A stretch of DNA of 64,000 nucleotides from NCBI GenBank assembly GCA_001778985.1, contig MFIU01000002.1, forward strand, positions 57,826-121,825. The letters run 5' to 3'. Source of the stretch: Candidatus Giovannonibacteria bacterium RIFOXYD1_FULL_48_21. Lineage in GTDB: Bacteria > Patescibacteriota > Minisyncoccia > JACPKW01 > UBA11713. Shown in pieces: positions 4,180-64,000 of the stretch (positions are counted from its first letter, which is position 1; every line of letters starts with the position of its first letter). The notes under the pieces are model-generated. The model made no database searches. It saw only the letters and a list, made by a program, of their open reading frames with translations, and was not told where the DNA came from. Made by a program: the position numbers and the translations under genes.

Positions 4180-4500
4180 ATGTCTAAATTCGCGGTAATC
4201 AAAACCGGCGGCAAGCAGTATTTGGTAGAGCCGGGGATGAAACTAAAAATCGAAAAACTCCCGCCGGGAAAAGACGAGACAATTGATTTTAATGAAGTCT
4301 TGCTCGTCGGAGAAGGGGAGAGTCTTGAGATTGGGAACCCTCTTGTAAGGAACGCGAAAGTCGCGGCCGAATGCATTCAAGAAGGCAAAGGTAAAAAAGT
4401 TATAGTGGCGCGCTACCACTCCAAAACCCGCTATTACAAGCGCCGCGGCCACCGCCAGCCCTTTACCGAGGTTTTGATAAAAGAGATAGTTGCGAAATAA
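4180..4500 (+). CDS. rplU: 50S ribosomal protein L21
   Basis: MSKFAVIKTGGKQYLVEPG is the L21 signature. 106 aa. Confidence 0.9.
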   Translation: MSKFAVIKTGGKQYLVEPGMKLKIEKLPPGKDETIDFNEVLLVGEGESLEIGNPLVRNAKVAAECIQEGKGKKVIVARYHSKTRYYKRRGHRQPFTEVLIKEIVAK

Positions 4501-4526
4501 AACTAGGTTTGCTAGAATGTGTTTGG

Positions 4527-4770
4527 CGTGGAAACGGTAGGGTCGCTAGGAAGCATTACGGGAGTTCGACTCTCTCGGCCGGTCCAAAAGTGAGGTCGGT
4601 TTGTGCAGGATAGGTGGGAGGCATTGAAGCGGAGGCGCTAGTTTCCAGGGAGCCAACCTTGAAATACCACCCTTGCCGATTGAACCCTCAGCCTCGGCCT
4701 TAAGCTCAAAACTGAGACTTGCGGATTCCATGCCTAACGCGGGGAGCGTCATCCGACCTCCCCGCGAAAT
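4527..4770 (+). ncRNA. 23S rRNA domain V-like fragment (H75-H79 / L1-stalk region), sense orientation, ending in a GC-rich hairpin
   Basis: Positions 4597-4672 read GGTCGGTTTGTGCAGGATAGGTGGGAGGCATTGAAG...GGAGCCAACCTTGAAATACCACCCTTG. They align at about 84% identity to E. coli 23S ~2105-2180 (GUGUAGGAUAGGUGGGAGGCUUUGAAG...GGAGCCGACCUUGAAAUACCACCCUU). The flanks show weaker H75/H79-like similarity. A hairpin GCGGGGAG..CTCCCCGC lies at 4739-4768. A possible TAGAAT -10 element is at 4512-4517. Confidence 0.5.
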
Positions 4771-4811
4771 TATTATAGTAACTCACGATCGTGACATATC
4801 ATAATCATTTC
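4768..4811. promoter_or_regulatory. Left copy of a duplicated operator/promoter module (palindrome TCACGATCGTGA + TATAAT-like box)
   Basis: Direct repeat, about 25/29 identical, with a copy at 5397-5440. Contains the perfect palindrome TCACGATCGTGA. On the minus strand the palindrome is followed by GTTAC-TATAAT. Confidence 0.45.
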
Positions 4812-4830
4812 ATTATATCTATTTCATTCG

Positions 4831-5388
4831 TCAGACTATATGGAAAGCTCGTTTAATTTTGTAATCATTGTCCAAGCTGGCCTCGGCGTATATCACAAAG
4901 GATTTTAAATTAAAGAAATGAATAACAAATTCAATCTCTTTTTTGCAATCGTACGGCCAAAGGAAAACGCTTTTTTGTAATTCGTAACATCCCAGCTCTT
5001 TTAACTTTCTTCTTAGGGCATCCCGGCTGCGTCTTTTAATTTCAGGGATATCAAAAAGTATCAGACGCCACTTACCATCCCAACGGCCCTGAACCGGAAG
5101 TTCCAGCTCAGAAAAATCTAATTTTTTAAGATACTCCCTACCCCTCGGCGTAATAAAAATTCTAACTTCATTCTTTGAAACTTGTTTATGTTCAATAAAA
5201 CCTCGTTTCTTAAGAGAACGAGAGAGGCGATAGATATGTTCGCGCTCTAGTTTTCGCCACTCTTTTGGCACAGATTTTAAAAGGCGGAAGTAGTGCCGGG
5301 GAGTAGGTGAGAGTCCTAAGGATACGCCCAGGGCCAACAACCAAAGAAATCTCTTCACCCAAATGTTTTTCGGCATCCGAATTTTCAT
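4831..5388 (-). CDS. PaaX-family transcriptional regulator (short form: wHTH + PaaX C-terminal Cas2-like domain)
   Basis: WDGKWRLILFDIPEIKRRSRDALRRKLKELGCYELQKSVFLWPY matches the PaaX core WDGxWxLxxYxIPExxRxxRDxLRRxLxxLGFGxLxxSVWISP. N-terminal winged-helix segment. Confidence 0.6.
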   Translation of the reverse strand: MKIRMPKNIWVKRFLWLLALGVSLGLSPTPRHYFRLLKSVPKEWRKLEREHIYRLSRSLKKRGFIEHKQVSKNEVRIFITPRGREYLKKLDFSELELPVQGRWDGKWRLILFDIPEIKRRSRDALRRKLKELGCYELQKSVFLWPYDCKKEIEFVIHFFNLKSFVIYAEASLDNDYKIKRAFHIV

Positions 5389-6064: not shown

Positions 6065-7447
6065 TTATTCTACCGCGAAATTTTCAAAACCGGCGCTTTC
6101 ATCCAGAGAAGTGAAAGTAACTTTGTCGGGGTTGAAATACAGGCTTACTTTGCCCAAGGGGCCGTTTCGGTGTTTGGCCACCATGATGTCCGCTTGGTTC
6201 GGCCTGGGAGAATTTTCTCGATAACGGTCTTCGCGATGGATTAAGAGCACGACATCCGCGTCTTGCTCGATTGAGCCGGATTCTCTCAAGTCCGAAAGCC
6301 GGGGGATGGGGGGGTGCCGAGATTCGACGGCGCGGGAAAGCTGGGAGACCGCCAAGACCGGCACGTTTAATTCGCGCGCCAAGGCCTTAAGGGAGCGGGA
6401 GATTTCGGTAATCTGTTGGACCATGCTCTCGGACGGGGTTCGCGGCTGCATCAGCTGAAGATAATCTATGACCAAAAGTCCCAAGTTGCCGTGGTCGGCC
6501 TGCAGGCGCCGCGCCATGGCCCGCATTTGTAAAATATTGTTTGAAGCCTCGTCATCGATATAGAGAGGCGCCTTGGAGAGATGGTCGAGCGCGTCCCGAA
6601 TTCTGGCAAAGTCATCAGAATTTTCCGCGAGTCGGCCGGTCCGCAGTTTCCATAGGTCCACATGGGCCTCGGAGGCGATGAAGCGGTCAACCAGCTGCTG
6701 GGTAGACATTTCTAGAGAAAATATTCCCACCGGAATATTTTTATGAATCGAAACGTGTCTGGCGATGTCCAGAGCCAGGGCGGTTTTTCCGAAAGAAGGC
6801 CTGGCGGCCAGAATAACGAGGTCTGATTTTTGCAGTCCGGCTAAAATATTATCGAGTTCTTTGAATCCGGTGGAAACTCCCCGCAGTTCGCCTTTATTTT
6901 TGTGTAGGTTGTCGATTCGCTCCCAAGCTTCTTCCAGGGCCTGACCCAGAGGCGTGAACTTTTGATGGAGCGAGCGCTGCGAGATAGAAAAAACTTTTTT
7001 CTCAGCTTCGTCCAAAAGAGAATCAATATCCTCGGATTCGCGGTAGCCCAGCTCCGCCAGGTCGCCCGAGACCTGAATCAAATCGCGAAGTACCCGTTTT
7101 TTTCTGACCAGCTCTGCATAGTGCTGGACGTTGGAGGCCGTGGGCACGGAATTGACGAGATCCGTTAAGTAGGCCACGCCGCCTATCTGCTCCAGGATAT
7201 TTTTTTCACCCAGCCTTGAAGAAATAGAAAGCATATCGATCGGTTCTCGGCGGTCAAAGAGGTCCAGAATCGCGGAAAAAATTGTCTGGTGCGCCGGACG
7301 ATAGAAATCCTCCGGCCGGATTATGTCGGCGACTTTATAAATCGCGCTGCCGTCCAGCAAAAGAGCCCCCAGAGTTGAAATTTCCGCTTCAACGTTTTGC
7401 GGCGGAATCCGGATGGTGCTGCCCAGGGGCGACTCAATATTGGCCAT
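6065..7447 (-). CDS. dnaB: Replicative DNA helicase DnaB
   Basis: N-terminal DnaB domain. Walker A ARPSFGKTALAL. RecA-like C-terminal domain. Confidence 0.9.
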   Translation of the reverse strand: MANIESPLGSTIRIPPQNVEAEISTLGALLLDGSAIYKVADIIRPEDFYRPAHQTIFSAILDLFDRREPIDMLSISSRLGEKNILEQIGGVAYLTDLVNSVPTASNVQHYAELVRKKRVLRDLIQVSGDLAELGYRESEDIDSLLDEAEKKVFSISQRSLHQKFTPLGQALEEAWERIDNLHKNKGELRGVSTGFKELDNILAGLQKSDLVILAARPSFGKTALALDIARHVSIHKNIPVGIFSLEMSTQQLVDRFIASEAHVDLWKLRTGRLAENSDDFARIRDALDHLSKAPLYIDDEASNNILQMRAMARRLQADHGNLGLLVIDYLQLMQPRTPSESMVQQITEISRSLKALARELNVPVLAVSQLSRAVESRHPPIPRLSDLRESGSIEQDADVVLLIHREDRYRENSPRPNQADIMVAKHRNGPLGKVSLYFNPDKVTFTSLDESAGFENFAVE

Positions 7448-7486: not shown

Positions 7487-8800
7487 TTATATCTTGATAA
7501 CCTGTGAACCTTCGGGCATATCTTGGACTTTGAAGCCAAGTTTCATAATTTCTTCCCTTATTCTATCAGCTTGACCCCATTTTTTCTCTCGGCGAAGGGC
7601 CTCTCTCTTTACAAGAAGCGCTTTGACTCGCGGCGGGACAGCTGATTTTTTTAAGTTTTTAAGCCCGAGACCCAAGACTTCGTCAGCACAGAGCAAATCT
7701 TCGTAGCTTTTAGCCTCTTTCCAAAGAAGGGCAAGGGCGCGCGGCATATTGAGGTCATCATTTAGCCGCGCTAAAAATTCTTTGCAGAAGGACCCGTCAG
7801 ATTTTTTCTTTCGCGCTTTGGCCTCCCGGGCGCGTTCCTGGAGTTTCAGGCGCGCTTGCCGTGCTCCTTCAAGCGCTTTCCAGGAAAACGAGAGGGGTGA
7901 ACGGTAGTGAGCGGTTAAGACGAGGTAGCGAAAGTCGAGCGGTTCGAATCCTTTTGTTTCCAGGTCCCGGAGGGTGAAAAGGTTGCCGAGGGATTTTGAC
8001 ATCTTTTTTTTCTCTATCAAAAGATGTTCTCCTTCGACAAAAAACCTCGCGAATTTTCTGCCGTAGGCGGCTTCGGACTGAGCGATTTCATTTTCATGAT
8101 GCGGAAAAATCAAATCAATTCCGCCGGCATGGATATCTATGGGCAGCCCAAGATATTTTATAGACATGGCCGAACATTCAATATGCCAGCCGGGGTGTCC
8201 GCCAACTGGAGGACTCTTTTTTTTCCATAACGCAAAATCTTCCGCCTGGTCTTTTGAATATTCGTCAACCGAGATTCTCGCGCCTGATTTTAACCCGCCT
8301 GCCGGACGGGCAGGTTCTTTTTGCTTGAGCCCGGAGAGTCGGCCGTATTTTTTAAACTTCGAGATATCGAAGTAGATTCCGTCCTCGGTTTCGTAAGCGT
8401 ATTTTTTCTTCAAAAGAAGGTTTATGATTTTTTTCATCTCCGAGATGTGTTCTGTGGCGCGAGGATATTTGAAGGCCGGCAAAATGTTAAGTCTTTTGAT
8501 ATCCCCAAAAAATCCTTTTTCGTAAAAACTCGTGAATTCTTTCAAACTTTTGCCGGCCTTTTTAGCTCCGCGGATGGTCTTATCGTCTATATCCGTGATA
8601 TTCATCACCAGTTTTACTTTATGGCCGTTTAATTCGAGCGTCCGACGCAAAATATCCTCAAAAATAAAAGTGCGCAGATTCCCGACATGAACGTAGTCGT
8701 AAACCGTTGGCCCGCAGGCGTAAAATTTAACCTCACCCTTGCGGGCGGGCCTGAAAATTTCTTTCTTTCTGGTGAAGGTGTTGAAAAGTCTCAATGACAT
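7487..8800 (-). CDS. cysS: Cysteine--tRNA ligase
   Basis: Class I HIGH motif (HVGN) and KMSKSLGN. Zinc-binding Cys residues. Confidence 0.9.
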   Translation of the reverse strand: MSLRLFNTFTRKKEIFRPARKGEVKFYACGPTVYDYVHVGNLRTFIFEDILRRTLELNGHKVKLVMNITDIDDKTIRGAKKAGKSLKEFTSFYEKGFFGDIKRLNILPAFKYPRATEHISEMKKIINLLLKKKYAYETEDGIYFDISKFKKYGRLSGLKQKEPARPAGGLKSGARISVDEYSKDQAEDFALWKKKSPPVGGHPGWHIECSAMSIKYLGLPIDIHAGGIDLIFPHHENEIAQSEAAYGRKFARFFVEGEHLLIEKKKMSKSLGNLFTLRDLETKGFEPLDFRYLVLTAHYRSPLSFSWKALEGARQARLKLQERAREAKARKKKSDGSFCKEFLARLNDDLNMPRALALLWKEAKSYEDLLCADEVLGLGLKNLKKSAVPPRVKALLVKREALRREKKWGQADRIREEIMKLGFKVQDMPEGSQVIKI

Positions 8801-59448: not shown

Positions 59449-60273
59449 ATGAGACGGCTGAAAGCACTATATTTATTACCCGTGGTTTTCCTTAGCGCCT
59501 GCGCGGCGCGAATGGAAGTTCTAACGGCGACGACCGAAAGCGGTACCGTCCTCGGACATTATGCTTTTTACCGTACCGATAACAAGGGCGGTATAGAGGC
59601 GGCAGGCCGAGACATATACGACAAGGATGGTAAACTCGTGGATACAAAGTTCGCCAGTGGCCCAACTGTACTTTATGGGACGACCGCCGGTAGTGCACCC
59701 GCTGTCGCGGGGGCAACCGGTTTCGCGCTCGGTATGAAATTTTTGCGGCCTACCGAGATCAACGAGACAACCAGCACCAACGTAAGCGGGGTGTCCTCGA
59801 GCGATCAAAGCCAAGGGCAACAGATGCAACAGCAGCAAAAACAGAAAGGCGGGGACGCAACTGCAAGCCCCACCGTGAGCTCCACGGCAAGTCCGGTCAT
59901 TAGTCCGACAGTGAGTCAGACCAACAGCCCGACTATTAGCCCGAGCGTCTCGGCCTCAACCGGCCCGATAAGTAACACGGCAAAAGGCGGTGCCGGAGGT
60001 CAAGGCGGTTTTGGATATGGGGTCGGAGGTCAAGGTGGCCAAGGCGGTTTTGGATACGGAGCGGGAGGAAGCTCTTTTTCCGGTGCAAGTGCAACTGCAA
60101 ACCCAACCATCGTCAACAAACCCACCACAAGTGTTGGCGTTGGGATAGGCATCGGCATTGACAACAAAAATGTCAACAAAGCCGAAAGCACGAACGTCAA
60201 CAAAAACGATAACTATAACAAGAACCAAACAAGCATAACCCAACCACAGCCGAAAAAGTGCGGCTGGTGCTGA
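59449..60273 (+). CDS. Lipoprotein with Ser/Thr/Pro-rich and Gly-rich (GGQGGFGYG) low-complexity repeats
   Basis: Lipobox LSAC. Repeats SPT(I/V)S and GGQGGFGYG. C-terminal CGWC. Confidence 0.5.
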   Translation: MRRLKALYLLPVVFLSACAARMEVLTATTESGTVLGHYAFYRTDNKGGIEAAGRDIYDKDGKLVDTKFASGPTVLYGTTAGSAPAVAGATGFALGMKFLRPTEINETTSTNVSGVSSSDQSQGQQMQQQQKQKGGDATASPTVSSTASPVISPTVSQTNSPTISPSVSASTGPISNTAKGGAGGQGGFGYGVGGQGGQGGFGYGAGGSSFSGASATANPTIVNKPTTSVGVGIGIGIDNKNVNKAESTNVNKNDNYNKNQTSITQPQPKKCGWC

Positions 60274-60293
60274 ACAACACAGAAGGAGGAAAT

Positions 60294-61073
60294 ATGCAGA
60301 AGATAGCGGTACTGTTGGCGCTCGCGTTCGGGATTTTATTCCCAGCGCTGAGCCAAGCCTACGTGGTCGCGCCAAAGGTCGGCGTGGTCATGGTGGAAAT
60401 CAAGCGCGGCGACACTTTCTCGGGGGTATGCTCCGACTTGTCAAAGAAAGGTCTCCTGCCAGAGAAATTCGGGGCCGTAAGGTGTAAAAACTCGGCCCTC
60501 GCGCGAAACGGCCTGACCGAAGAAAGCGCGCGATACATCCAGCCCGGGGATCTTTACTTTTTCCCGTATCTGCCGCTCGCGAAATATGAGGGAAAAGTTC
60601 GACAAGAAATCGCCGCCTCTCTTCTTCCGCTCCTCAATAAAGCAGAGAGGGGAACAAAAGTAGTCGGACAAAGGCTGAAGGCGGCCGAACAAGAAAGAGA
60701 TAAAGCGCTCGACCAGCTTCGCGAGTGGAAAATCGGGGCCTTCCTGGGCATGGGGATGCTCACTATTTTCGCAGTATTAATCTTTTTCTTAACGCGCGGT
60801 TTTTTCCGGGTGAAGATTAACAACCTAAAAAGCTGGCAACTTGGGGAGAAAGTAACCTATACTCTCCCCGGCACAAAAAAGACCGTTAGCTTCAAGGTTG
60901 TGGGGAGCGGCTTCAAACAAGACGACGGCCGGGAAGTCCCCTTCTTGCGTCTCCAAAGCTCGCTCGCTCCTGATGTTGTGGTGGACTCGTACCCCGCCAA
61001 CAACGTCTATCGGCACATGCGAAAGCATTTGGAGCCAAGCATCATTGAGTTCGAGCAGAGAACCGTAAACTAA
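60294..61073 (+). CDS. LysM-like domain membrane protein
   Basis: Signal or TM, LysM-like segment (VVMVEIKRGDTFSGVCSDL...IQPGDLYFFP), central TM. Confidence 0.45.
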   Translation: MQKIAVLLALAFGILFPALSQAYVVAPKVGVVMVEIKRGDTFSGVCSDLSKKGLLPEKFGAVRCKNSALARNGLTEESARYIQPGDLYFFPYLPLAKYEGKVRQEIAASLLPLLNKAERGTKVVGQRLKAAEQERDKALDQLREWKIGAFLGMGMLTIFAVLIFFLTRGFFRVKINNLKSWQLGEKVTYTLPGTKKTVSFKVVGSGFKQDDGREVPFLRLQSSLAPDVVVDSYPANNVYRHMRKHLEPSIIEFEQRTVN

Positions 61074-61198
61074 CTCAAACCAGCTCTTTACCGATTTACC
61101 GATTTTGCGTCTGTCCGAGAGTATTTTACTCATAAGACAGCGCCAAGTCTACGGTGAGGAGGAAACTCCATAAGCGTAGAGAGATCGGATGAATCGAA

Positions 61199-61240
61199 AA
61201 AGCCCCTTCCGCCAAAACGGACGGGGCTTTTTAATTTTGC
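61199..61240. terminator. Intrinsic terminator between the convergent LysM-like gene and the SipW operon
   Basis: AAGCCCC...GGGGCTT hairpin + TTTTAATTTT. Confidence 0.5.
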
Positions 61241-61249
61241 TAACGTAGA

Positions 61250-62224
61250 CTAACTCGCCTCTTCGGGATTGTCAGCAGGAGGTGCTGTGTCCTCCGAAGC
61301 CGGAGGCGAATCCTCAATCGTATTTTCTCCGCTTTCACCGCTTTCACCCGCCGTAGCCTCTGGCGAAGGCCGGGCGCTAGCGGAATTTCCTCCGGTATCA
61401 GCTTCAACTTCAACATTATTTTCAACCACCGCCTCGCTCTGATTTTCAACAACGGTGTCAGTCTGAACTTCTGTTATTTCAGTATTAACGATATTCTCCA
61501 CCTCGGATTGGGCGCAGGCGTCTCCGGTGATAATTATTCCGCCGCTGGAATATCCCCCGAAGTCTGGGAAGTCAGGAAAATCCGGAAAGTCTGGAAAATC
61601 TGGAAAATCAAAATCATCGCATTCCTTGGGCGGTTCTTTGCAGGTCGAAACCTTCTTGGCGTTGTTGGTTTTCTTGACGCGGTCTTTCATATCCTCGAGC
61701 TCCTGGTCCGTAACCGAGTTGGAGTCATTCGCCTCCTGCGTCAAAAGCTGGTCCGCTTCGTCAGCGAGCTCATTAATCCGAATATCTTCTCCGGGCACCA
61801 AAGCGTTCCCCACCCCGAAATGCGCGATATTGAATTTTAACGCCAAAAGTTCGCGCGCGAGCTTGTCATACATCGTATCGTTATTGTTCAAAATCTCCTC
61901 GGCCTCATCGGGAGTCTCTACCCAGACCGGCCCCACGCTCTGCGGCAAATCCCACAAGTCTTCGTGGTTCTTCCAAAATCCTCTAGAGCGTATCTCAAAT
62001 TTGTCACAGCCCTCGATTTGCGCCGTGACGTTTATGACGTGCGCCTCAAAAGCGAAAATCAAAGGCAGGGAGGCGAGCGTCAAAACCAGGCCAGTCAAAG
62101 CGATTCCGAAAATAGAACGCTTTTTAAAAGTAGAAAATAACCCGAACTTCTTAACCCTGGCTCGGGGTCTTTGCCTGACGGTTCTTTTCTTTATTTGCTT
62201 CGGTCTTATGTCTACTATTAACAT
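61250..62224 (-). CDS. SipW-cognate secreted protein (TasA/camelysin-like class), acidic, with DFP x6 repeat
   Basis: The signal peptide ends ...LPLIFAFEAHVINVTAQIE, shared with the paralog at 63215..63919. DFPDFPDFPDFPDFPDF repeat. Acidic C-terminal tail. Confidence 0.5.
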   Translation of the reverse strand: MLIVDIRPKQIKKRTVRQRPRARVKKFGLFSTFKKRSIFGIALTGLVLTLASLPLIFAFEAHVINVTAQIEGCDKFEIRSRGFWKNHEDLWDLPQSVGPVWVETPDEAEEILNNNDTMYDKLARELLALKFNIAHFGVGNALVPGEDIRINELADEADQLLTQEANDSNSVTDQELEDMKDRVKKTNNAKKVSTCKEPPKECDDFDFPDFPDFPDFPDFPDFGGYSSGGIIITGDACAQSEVENIVNTEITEVQTDTVVENQSEAVVENNVEVEADTGGNSASARPSPEATAGESGESGENTIEDSPPASEDTAPPADNPEEAS

Positions 62225-62225
62225 G

Positions 62226-62678
62226 CTAATTTTTAATGTTTGCGCTTATCACTGAAATAAAACCGAGGTACGGAATCCGAATATATGTATCTCCGACTTT
62301 GTACGCCTTACCGATAATGTCTTCATATCTGACCGCTTCGTCATCCTTAAAATTCGCGTCGCCCTTGGTGGTTAAAGTTTTTTCGGAGAGCTTCACGATT
62401 CTATGTATTGTGAATCCCTGCCTGCCGTCAGGCATGGCCTTTGGATTTGACCAGACCACGATATCTCCCACGCTTAATTCTTCTTTGCTCTTAACTCCCT
62501 TGATTAAAATTAAATCCCCTTCCTTCAGAATCGGCCACATTGAGCCGGACGTTATCGAGGCCATGGGATATGGCGTACCCAGCCACTTTGAGAGCCCGAC
62601 CGGAAGCCCCCAAAATATCAGCGCGACAATGGCCGCATAGATTACTATATCCAAAAGTATCTTCAGAAATTTCTTCAT
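62226..62678 (-). CDS. sipW: Signal peptidase I, archaeal/eukaryotic type (SipW/Sec11-like)
   Basis: Catalytic Ser in ITSGSMWPILKEGDLILI. His in GFTIHRIV. No bacterial P-type GDNRxxSxDSR box. 150 aa. Confidence 0.7.
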   Translation of the reverse strand: MKKFLKILLDIVIYAAIVALIFWGLPVGLSKWLGTPYPMASITSGSMWPILKEGDLILIKGVKSKEELSVGDIVVWSNPKAMPDGRQGFTIHRIVKLSEKTLTTKGDANFKDDEAVRYEDIIGKAYKVGDTYIRIPYLGFISVISANIKN

Positions 62679-62681
62679 ATC

Positions 62682-63128
62682 CTATCCGCTTTTCCATGTT
62701 GGTACGCGAAATATAAAAACTCTTCCAGTATATTTCGCGCCTATTTCAGCCGAAGCCGGCATATAGACCGTGAACTCTATCCGGTCGGCCGTTTTGGGGG
62801 CGAGGACGAAATAATTTTTATTAAGGTCCATCAGCTCGGAAATTTTTCCGACCCTGACCACGGCAATCCACATGCCGACCGGCGTTTGGTTTTCAATGTC
62901 CACTCTTCGGATAGCCGATGTCCCGCGGGACAGGTCTCCAAAATCCAATCTCTCGGTCGTGGGATTCACTCCCACTCTGCCCTCGCCTTCAATCACCAAA
63001 ACCTGCGCCGAATATTTGTTGGCATCGAGCGCGATGTAGAAGACGGCGAGAAAAATAATAATAAGAACAACGGCGAGGATTTTCTCACCCTTGGTCATCC
63101 TCCGCCAAAAACTTTTGTCTTCTTCCAT
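62682..63128 (-). CDS. TM-anchored beta-sandwich protein of the SipW operon
   Basis: N-terminal TM and a beta-rich extracytoplasmic domain. Confidence 0.4.
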   Translation of the reverse strand: MEEDKSFWRRMTKGEKILAVVLIIIFLAVFYIALDANKYSAQVLVIEGEGRVGVNPTTERLDFGDLSRGTSAIRRVDIENQTPVGMWIAVVRVGKISELMDLNKNYFVLAPKTADRIEFTVYMPASAEIGAKYTGRVFIFRVPTWKSG

Positions 63129-63214
63129 ATGTATGTTTCCCCTATCGGCTTATTAATCGCCGAATCCTCCGGCCCGTCACAAGCGAGCCAGAGAGATTCG
63201 AAGATCAATCGCTG

Positions 63215-63919
63215 TTATCGGGGTATGTCACTGAAACGGCTAACACGGTTAACTTCGACCCAGAGATCACAGCCGAAGAGTTCGCTTTCCAAAGCAGGAT
63301 CAAGCTCATACTCATCAGGTATTTCCTCGTCTTGGGCGCAATTTCCAATAAAACACGGTACATGAAGATCGATTGTCCAACTGTCCTCAATATCGTCTTC
63401 GGACTTCGCCAAGACTCCAAATACATCGAAGAAACTTGCCACAGAAGGCGTCCAAGCTGGTGTCGAGGTAGGTCCGTGGAAAGCGGCCAAATTCCCATCG
63501 TTATCAGGACTCTTGTCATCCTCTTTCGAAAGGTAAGGACATAGTATCGGCAACATTTCGAACTCCTCATCTTCGCAAACGAATATAGTACGCCCGGGGT
63601 TCTGTGGATCTGGTACTTCTGTCACGCGGCCAAAACCCTCTTCGCCATCAAAGCATTTAGGTTTCTGGCGAATATGATATTCGATGTCATCCGCATCAGG
63701 CTCCTCAAAGAAGGAACGGCTCATCGCGATTGTGGCAGTAGCCAGGCGAACCTCCTCAGGGAATACCGTACCAAATGCTATCTCGAGAGGACTTACCGAC
63801 AGAGCGTTCTCAATTGTTGCCGTTACGTTAATCACATGCGCCTCGAAGGCCGCGAAGAGAGGGAGCATCGCTACCGCTGTTCCTGCGGCGGCGATTCCTA
63901 AGATTATTTTCTTTTTCAT
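63215..63919 (-). CDS. SipW-cognate secreted protein paralog (acidic)
   Basis: The signal peptide ends ...LPLFAAFEAHVINVTATIEN. Acidic, Cys-containing mature region. Confidence 0.5.
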   Translation of the reverse strand: MKKKIILGIAAAGTAVAMLPLFAAFEAHVINVTATIENALSVSPLEIAFGTVFPEEVRLATATIAMSRSFFEEPDADDIEYHIRQKPKCFDGEEGFGRVTEVPDPQNPGRTIFVCEDEEFEMLPILCPYLSKEDDKSPDNDGNLAAFHGPTSTPAWTPSVASFFDVFGVLAKSEDDIEDSWTIDLHVPCFIGNCAQDEEIPDEYELDPALESELFGCDLWVEVNRVSRFSDIPR

Positions 63920-64000
63920 AGATTAATTTTTAATTATCGCCAATAATTATCGACCAATAATATTTATTTTTTATTTGATGAAAGCTATTGGCGGCGAACC

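Follow-up and report, generated by a model that had tools for sequence, protein, structure and literature searches.

A SipW-like signal peptidase and a conserved leader tag mark a candidate surface attachment cassette of Patescibacteria

Four open reading frames (ORFs) running in one direction, one encoding a signal peptidase (SPase) and two encoding exported proteins with nearly the same leader, raise the question of whether the peptidase serves its neighbours and, if so, what is displayed on the cell surface. The operon lies at positions 61250-63919 of the minus strand in the window, that is, the whole stretch of 64,000 nucleotides (nt) analyzed here from contig MFIU01000002.1 of Candidatus Giovannonibacteria bacterium RIFOXYD1_FULL_48_21, a member of the Patescibacteria, or candidate phyla radiation (CPR). 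Most Patescibacteria have not been brought into culture, and those that have live attached to host cells. To our knowledge, essentially nothing is known of their attachment machinery apart from type IV pili. The genes, in the order A, B, peptidase and D, very probably encode a processing system that is dedicated to surface proteins and specific for their leader.

In both A and D, a hydrophobic leader is followed at once by AFEAHVINVTA. By BLASTP their leaders share 24 identities over 38 residues (E 1e-9), and the mature parts share nothing. Because the similarity ends at residue 38, A and D have a common leader and are not paralogues; the first-pass annotation had correctly recognized the leader, AFEAHVINVTA(T/Q)IE, and wrongly taken the two proteins for paralogues. 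It had also called both proteins acidic and secreted, which agrees with their isoelectric points (pI 4.2 and 4.4) and hydrophobic leaders. The two copies of the 11-residue segment, referred to below as the tag, are encoded differently, with synonymous changes in 7 of the 11 codons; the peptide itself is therefore under selection, and its identity does not stem from recent copying of DNA. We compared 128 A-type leaders with 42 leaders of the X type, X being the gene position that D occupies. The block A-[FY]-E-[AS]-H-[VI]-[VIL]-N-[VI]-T-A is 90-100% conserved in them whatever body follows, and conservation extends at least 10 residues past AFEA, in X proteins too. A strict tag regular expression matched 211 ORFs in their first 150 residues and only 2 further along; the tag is thus confined to N-termini, and it is invariant across unrelated mature domains. 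Within the window it occurs twice, in A and D, and nowhere else. Neighbouring secreted proteins, namely a 235-aa protein upstream and the members of an A-like sub-family described below (sub2), carry ordinary signal peptides without the tag. The tag also holds an N-V-T sequon (N-x-T). In a few X proteins this Thr gives way to I, K or E, so that glycosylation of the tag is not an obvious requirement.

The peptidase is of the archaeal type. It scores 84 bits against TIGR02228 (archaeal-type SPase I; curated cutoff 51.85), 34.9 bits against the bacterial-type TIGR02227, under the cutoff of 47, and 43.9 bits against the Bacillus SipW equivalog NF046067, whose cutoff is 190. Since the last cutoff is missed, the enzyme is SipW-like and not SipW. 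Human SEC11A and SEC11C are its nearest relatives of known structure, and its SGS46M, IH92R and GD107xN..DD113 motifs align with the catalytic Ser, His and Asp of SEC11; these residues are invariant across 57 cassette peptidases. We take S46, H92, D107 and D113 to correspond to S56, H96, D116 and D122 of SEC11A. There is no Lys box in the protein (SGSMWP...IHRIV, Ser/His/Asp). The Ser/His SPase I without a Ser/Lys box that had been read from the letters is thus upheld, with a conserved Asp in addition. No LepB-type SPase is found among the genes of the 64-kb window. In a Paceibacteria metagenome-assembled genome (MAG; locus L021), a LepB-type SPase I (4328-4930, minus strand; TIGR02227, 147.6 bits) is encoded 5 kb upstream of the cassette peptidase. 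In this locus at least, the cassette peptidase is an additional, dedicated enzyme, because a separate LepB-type SPase lies close by.

A genome scan yielded 74 loci, nearly all from MAGs labelled as Patescibacteria or as one of the candidate phyla within this group; seven are labelled only 'bacterium' or 'uncultured Gammaproteobacteria'. Synteny was counted over the 60 loci with sufficient flanking DNA, 56 for X. In 59 of the 60, the gene order is one to four tag-bearing A paralogues, a B homologue and the peptidase; in at least 42 of the 56, a tag-bearing X begins immediately behind the peptidase. The genes are tightly packed (median gaps of 3 nt between B and peptidase and 1.5 nt between peptidase and X; 1-3 nt from B through D in the window). 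Median identity to the window proteins is 49.3% for B and likewise for the peptidase, and 41.5% for the best A of each locus. No other conserved neighbour, such as a sortase, usher or ATPase, emerged from all-against-all clustering of the loci. Judged from this synteny, the peptidase is dedicated to its tag-bearing neighbours and its presence is not incidental, as had been proposed in the first-pass annotation against a housekeeping enzyme with a Lys base. In the literature library searched, we found no description of the motif, nor of SipW or Sec11 in connection with CPR taxa.

Is this then a TasA system? The tapA-sipW-tasA operon of Bacillus subtilis and the calY loci likewise encode a dedicated Sec11-like peptidase among its substrates, and the first-pass annotation expected a SipW-cognate leader on TasA- or camelysin-like substrates. 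Neither expectation was borne out. The leaders of A, D and a paralogue of A with a VWA domain gave no match to TIGR04088, TIGR04089 or TIGR04090 at E<=10; a TasA control, validated by its 514 bits to NF046066, reached 38 bits on TIGR04088 (cutoff 19). There was no match to NF046066 either, and PF12389 is matched by none of A, D, 42 X proteins and 66 long A proteins. Homologues of PF12389 do exist in Patescibacteria (Wang et al.); none of the proteins studied here matches this family. A full-length hhalign comparison of A with TasA placed FAAFEA on TWAAFND with a probability of 25.6%. Its source was the signal peptides, and after trimming of these it was lost, so that homology of A to TasA was dropped; what remained between the mature parts was noise. 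By profile searches, the tag leaders are therefore a class apart from the curated SipW-cognate leaders, and the cassette is outside the sequence-defined TasA/camelysin families as well as the three leader classes, and adds B.

Protein A has at least 977 homologues, all annotated 'hypothetical' and without a Pfam family, which form 656 representative clusters at 50% identity. Six Cys residues are invariant. The AlphaFold2 (AF2) model (mean predicted local distance difference test score, pLDDT, 92.6) is a beta-sandwich after the leader helix, in which residues 24-39 do not form a paired strand. Foldseek with this model gave no match at E <= 1e-3; the best meaningful ones were CanA, CanX, the TasA fibre and an ASH domain, and the TasA match is weak and ambiguous. 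Sequence searches of the PDB with A and D profiles gave nothing useful, and LPXTG is absent from the C-termini of A and D. Long A paralogues carry C-terminal cargo: VWA in 28 of 66, and SpaA-like, DUF642 (four paralogues), Laminin_G and other domains. Such adhesin-like cargo fits the surface fibre or adhesin first suggested as the product. Seven homologues of A (P0301, P0310, P0314, P0316, P0319, P0338 and P0342) have cargo of about 170-200 aa inserted in a loop of A after the LSxSF helix; therefore the A scaffold accepts internal payloads besides C-terminal ones. In some homologues two matched stretches had looked like tandem A domains and proved to be such loop insertions. The sub-family sub2 has ordinary signal peptides, a V-[SE]-A site and KPKP in place of KPKC, and five of its seven members lie downstream of cassettes. 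Several of its C-terminal domains start in a D-like manner (TRTxGFWxTH), with one weak hidden Markov model (HMM) match (E 2e-4). From these similarities, sub2 may combine the A and D domain types in a fusion.

Protein B was described in the first-pass annotation as a beta-sandwich protein anchored by a transmembrane (TM) helix. Its AF2 model (pLDDT 90.8) agrees: a TM helix is followed by a strand at residues 37-46 and then by an immunoglobulin (Ig)-like domain. Its place in the universally conserved core of the cassette had been overlooked. The segment at 37-46, which corresponds to the tag, is a strand in cis in the uncleaved model. The fold resembles the PapD-like/MSP/ASH Ig superfamily, and a PDB sequence search with the B profile gave weak ASH matches only. 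An hhalign comparison of A with B fell short of significance (probability 0.4%) and gives no ground for calling the two homologues. Two blocks are invariant in 57 B homologues: LDANKY, which directly follows the TM helix, and GVNPTTExLDFGDLSRG. On the cytoplasmic side, the N-terminus ranges in length from about 10 to 80 residues and has a constant W..(L/M)(T/S)..EK motif.

Protein D consists of a long basic n-region, the tag, a Cys-bracketed domain of about 125 aa (RSxGFWKNH...LLALKFNIAHFG) and a Pro- and acid-rich low-complexity tail. Its family is small (24 matches), without a Pfam, NCBIfam or PDB match. The repeat in D, at first counted as six DFP units, has five, flanked by DFD and DFG. 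As it is present in close relatives only, it is a low-complexity linker and not a conserved motif. The acidic tail contains a second 9-nt tandem repeat (window 61324-61348, 2.8 copies), which encodes GESGESGEN. The D-type domain was considered as a universal feature of the X position and is present in 11 of 42 X proteins; X is therefore a position, not a family. The X proteins have 215-1118 aa and combine the tag with unrelated bodies, among them LTD (12 of 42), SdrD_B, SpaA, malectin and carbohydrate-binding modules.

Where is the tagged leader cut? In the leader alignment, three positions always hold a small residue, namely those preceding F25, H28 and residue 35. A cut before residue 35 (V-T-A|) agrees with the -3/-1 rule in every leader, and implies a c-region of 11-15 residues after a helix-breaking Pro, which is unusually long. 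AFEA|H has a normal n-h-c geometry with an aromatic residue at -3, and A|FEAH has mostly Phe at -3. The V-[SE]-A| sites of sub2 align with A residues 27-29, and the mature sub2 chain keeps NV..TIxxNLSV. Since these canonical sites sit at A residues 27-29, early cleavage is favoured. Cleavage after AFEA is plausible, and from the alignment we infer that (H)VINVTAxIE is probably left at the mature N-terminus. The aromatic residue at -3 could make the leaders depend on a dedicated enzyme.

In TasA, the first 11 mature residues are a donor strand, and TapA, which nucleates fibres and whose gene overlaps sipW, shares only this strand with TasA (PMC9674648, PMC10151520). The tapA-sipW-tasA operon resembles the cassette further in that its substrates share a conserved segment straight after the hydrophobic leader, and in having no usher, sortase or ATPase. 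Like TapA, D and other X proteins share only an N-terminal segment with the other substrates and have an unrelated body, an acidic disordered tail and coupling to the peptidase gene; D/X is present in single copy. The two systems differ in that the Bacillus leader reads GGGTxAxF(S/N)D, and TIGR04088 misses AFEAHVxNVTA; cassette subunits are six-Cys Ig/ASH-like proteins with cargo, not detectably homologous to TasA; and the cassette has several A paralogues and an additional conserved membrane-anchored B, and is confined to Patescibacteria. [quoted passage not shown] The cassette would work like the SipW/TasA and the archaeal AbpX and SPase I systems (PMC9245690, PMC12518558).

We propose a strand-complementation model because D/X parallels TapA, because X proteins carry the tag without an A body to pair with it in cis, and because the conservation exceeds the usual needs of a peptidase. 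All A and X proteins are exported by way of a long hydrophobic leader directly before AFEAHVxNVTA. The peptidase, probably with B, would recognize the tag and cut at or just before it, likely near AFEA|H, and the beta-strand-prone (H)VINVTAxIE would stay at the mature N-terminus. The tag segment of 7-11 residues is beta-branched and alternating. This common strand may complement neighbouring subunits so that A chains into a fibre, with X, a strand without an A body, as a TapA-like initiator or cap. We infer for B the role of a membrane anchor, chaperone or tag receptor. The outcome would be a fibre or display scaffold showing interchangeable adhesin modules. A SipW-like cassette that works by a mechanism akin to TapA-SipW-TasA, with the retained tag as a shared beta-strand, seems to us an evenly balanced proposition by analogy; polymerization through the tag is a tentative one, which we put somewhat below even. 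Unlikely, in our estimate, is the boldest form of the model, an usher-free donor-strand assembly line of monoderm cells that is unique to CPR, in which the peptidase exposes one invariant donor strand on every substrate, B is chaperone or base and any tagged protein can be plugged in, be it a scaffold with VWA, lectin or SpaA cargo or a tag-only X protein.

Several observations weigh against the strand-complementation model. Aligned with TasA and CalY, the mature part of A gives E 0.39-0.64, on a par with shuffled controls; the monomer of A is confidently predicted to fold by itself; and a strict major/minor pattern, with one bare and one cargo-bearing A in each cassette, was not upheld. The extreme invariance of the tag is equally expected of a pure enzyme-recognition signal. 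Moreover, V-T-A| is the only -3/-1 site common to all leaders, and a cut there would remove the tag and abolish the shared strand. The tag may accordingly be a sorting signal only, lying as a beta-strand in the peptidase groove, with B as substrate receptor and monomeric adhesins as products in place of a fibre. HVINVTA would make a good P7-P1 beta-strand, the tag does not vary with the mature fold, B and the peptidase evolve at equal rates and are translationally coupled, the A model is complete as a monomer, and cassette composition is heterogeneous. We nevertheless regard a sorting signal as rather unlikely, since the c-region would be unusually long, a homologous NV..TIxxNLSV is kept in mature sub2 paralogues with canonical sites, signal peptidases normally constrain few P' residues against the ten or more conserved here, and the parallel to TapA and TasA is close (PMC9674648).

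Priming as in type V pili, in which the tag strand fills the groove of A in cis, the VTA| cut opens the groove to a strand of another subunit and uncleavable B serves as the anchor, has in its favour the likeness of B to an uncleaved A-type precursor (TM helix, strand 37-46, Ig domain), the canonical V-x-A and the occurrence of a VWA accessory subunit, Mfa5, in type V pili. This is improbable, as the tag is unpaired in the A model, X and D are tagged without an A body to be opened, no type V pilin is among the fold matches and the sub2 alignment favours early cleavage. Still less probable is an ordinary TasA/camelysin SipW-cognate system with a TIGR04088 leader and TasA-like subunits. The position of a SipW-type peptidase beside its substrates, the full-length hhalign result and the TasA fibre among the weak fold matches speak for it; the absence of matches to TIGR04088/04089/04090, NF046066 and PF12389 with a working control, the loss of the hhalign signal without signal peptides and the lack of a counterpart of B in tapA-sipW-tasA speak against it. 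That a housekeeping peptidase stands among secreted-protein genes by chance is hardly credible: the window does lack a LepB-type SPase, but the synteny with tag-bearing genes, the two SPase types within 6 kb in L021 and the restriction of the tag to cassette proteins all contradict it.

Other assembly systems share single features with the cassette. In chaperone-usher pili (PapD/FimC), an Nte pilin has a short N-terminal extension before an Ig-like body, as A does, whereas B is a single-domain, TM-anchored protein of a monoderm-type cell without an usher (the comparison with a two-domain chaperone plus usher failed), and B matches PapD/FimC at the level of the general fold superfamily, not the chaperone family. 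In the eukaryotic signal peptidase complex, SEC11A/C is nearest to the cassette peptidase with Ser-His-Asp conserved, and B, a single-pass protein with an extracytoplasmic beta-sandwich that is obligatorily co-encoded, recalls SPC22/23. As an actual SPC22/23-like subunit, B found no fold support. Type V pili of Bacteroidia and sortase pili also have several paralogous subunits, one with a VWA adhesin, and protease-gated assembly; the cassette differs in having no lipobox, gingipain-type processing, LPXTG or sortase.

The cassette is a widespread, unannotated candidate attachment system of ultrasmall bacteria. Clusters of the scaffold alone number 656, and the loci come from many candidate phyla; annotation is 'hypothetical' throughout, three of the four components lack a Pfam family, and the cargo is of the adhesin type. 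To the principle of a dedicated SipW-type peptidase with a cognate leader, the cassette adds a new leader class, a new subunit fold family and a new, obligatory partner with an Ig-like fold. With its 11 residues, the tag serves as a simple genomic marker by which surface proteins of Patescibacteria can be catalogued. If the assembly-line model is true, episymbiotic ultrasmall bacteria could attach to their hosts by a plug-and-play adhesive organelle, and if the tag is a universal donor strand, it would offer a compact, engineerable protein-display system.

Table 1. Features of the operon, its continuation on contig L001 and the sub2 members (window positions unless a contig is named)
Feature	Position	Strand	Description
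Gene A	63215-63919	-	234 aa, exported, acidic pI 4.2, six-Cys Ig-like beta-sandwich scaffold (predicted), tagged leader
Leader of A	63851-63919	-	residues 1-23: n-region MKKK and hydrophobic region; AF2 helices 2-17 and 19-23
Tag AFEAHVINVTA in A	63818-63850	-	residues 24-34, from translation
Gene B	62682-63128	-	148 aa, N-terminal TM anchor and predicted MSP/ASH/PapD-like Ig domain
Sec11/SipW-type signal peptidase I (S26B)	62226-62678	-	150 aa, catalytic Ser46/His92/Asp113
Gene D (X position)	61250-62224	-	324 aa, pI 4.4, tagged leader
Tag AFEAHVINVTA in D	62021-62053	-	residues 58-68, from translation
DFP x5 repeat in D	61563-61609	-	9-nt period, 5.2 copies
Intrinsic-terminator-like hairpin and U-tract	61192-61236	-	operon end, 3' of D; RNA folding
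A paralogue with C-terminal VWA	L001 7774-9096 (824-2146 nt past window position 64000)	co-directional with operon	440 aa, true A paralogue, same tag
Secreted protein	L001 9162-9869 (51-758 nt past window position 64000)	co-directional with operon	235 aa, ordinary signal peptide, no family match
sub2 members	L026 8957-10063; L037 10797-12143; L048 14510-15613; L049 10355-12310; L052 7989-9077; L030 1729-2985; L058 16133-16705		second A-like sub-family

The four co-directional ORFs do form the minus-strand operon of the first-pass annotation, which is not confined to four genes. Contig L001 is the same sequence as the window over 6 kb (0 mismatches) and extends beyond the window end, which cuts the operon; it adds two upstream genes in the same direction. 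One encodes a 440-aa protein with the leader AFEAHIINVTAEIN, an A-type domain and VWA (PF00092, E 8e-22), and the gene of the 235-aa secreted protein comes after it. At the other end, the GC-rich hairpin after D folds at -23.7 kcal/mol (z -3.6; 0 of 200 shuffles fold as well); a terminator pattern scan overlooked it and folding revealed it. A scan for sigma-70 promoters yielded nothing informative.

Just upstream of the extended operon, L001 has a 180-aa gene with weak PaaX_M/Cas2-like similarity (6589-7131, minus strand) and a small GIY-YIG nuclease gene (7517-7777, plus strand). The latter may be a mobile insertion, because it is not among the called genes of contigs L002 and L003, which are otherwise identical. 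PADLOC defence models gave no match. Two overlapping plus-strand genes without a family match face the operon end in the window. The product of the first (59449-60273) is lipoprotein-like: it has an LSAC lipobox, low-complexity sequence rich in Gln, Ser and Gly, GGQGGFGYG repeats and KKCGWC at its C-terminus. That of the second (60258-61073; 271 aa) has a signal peptide and a TM segment in the middle of the protein.

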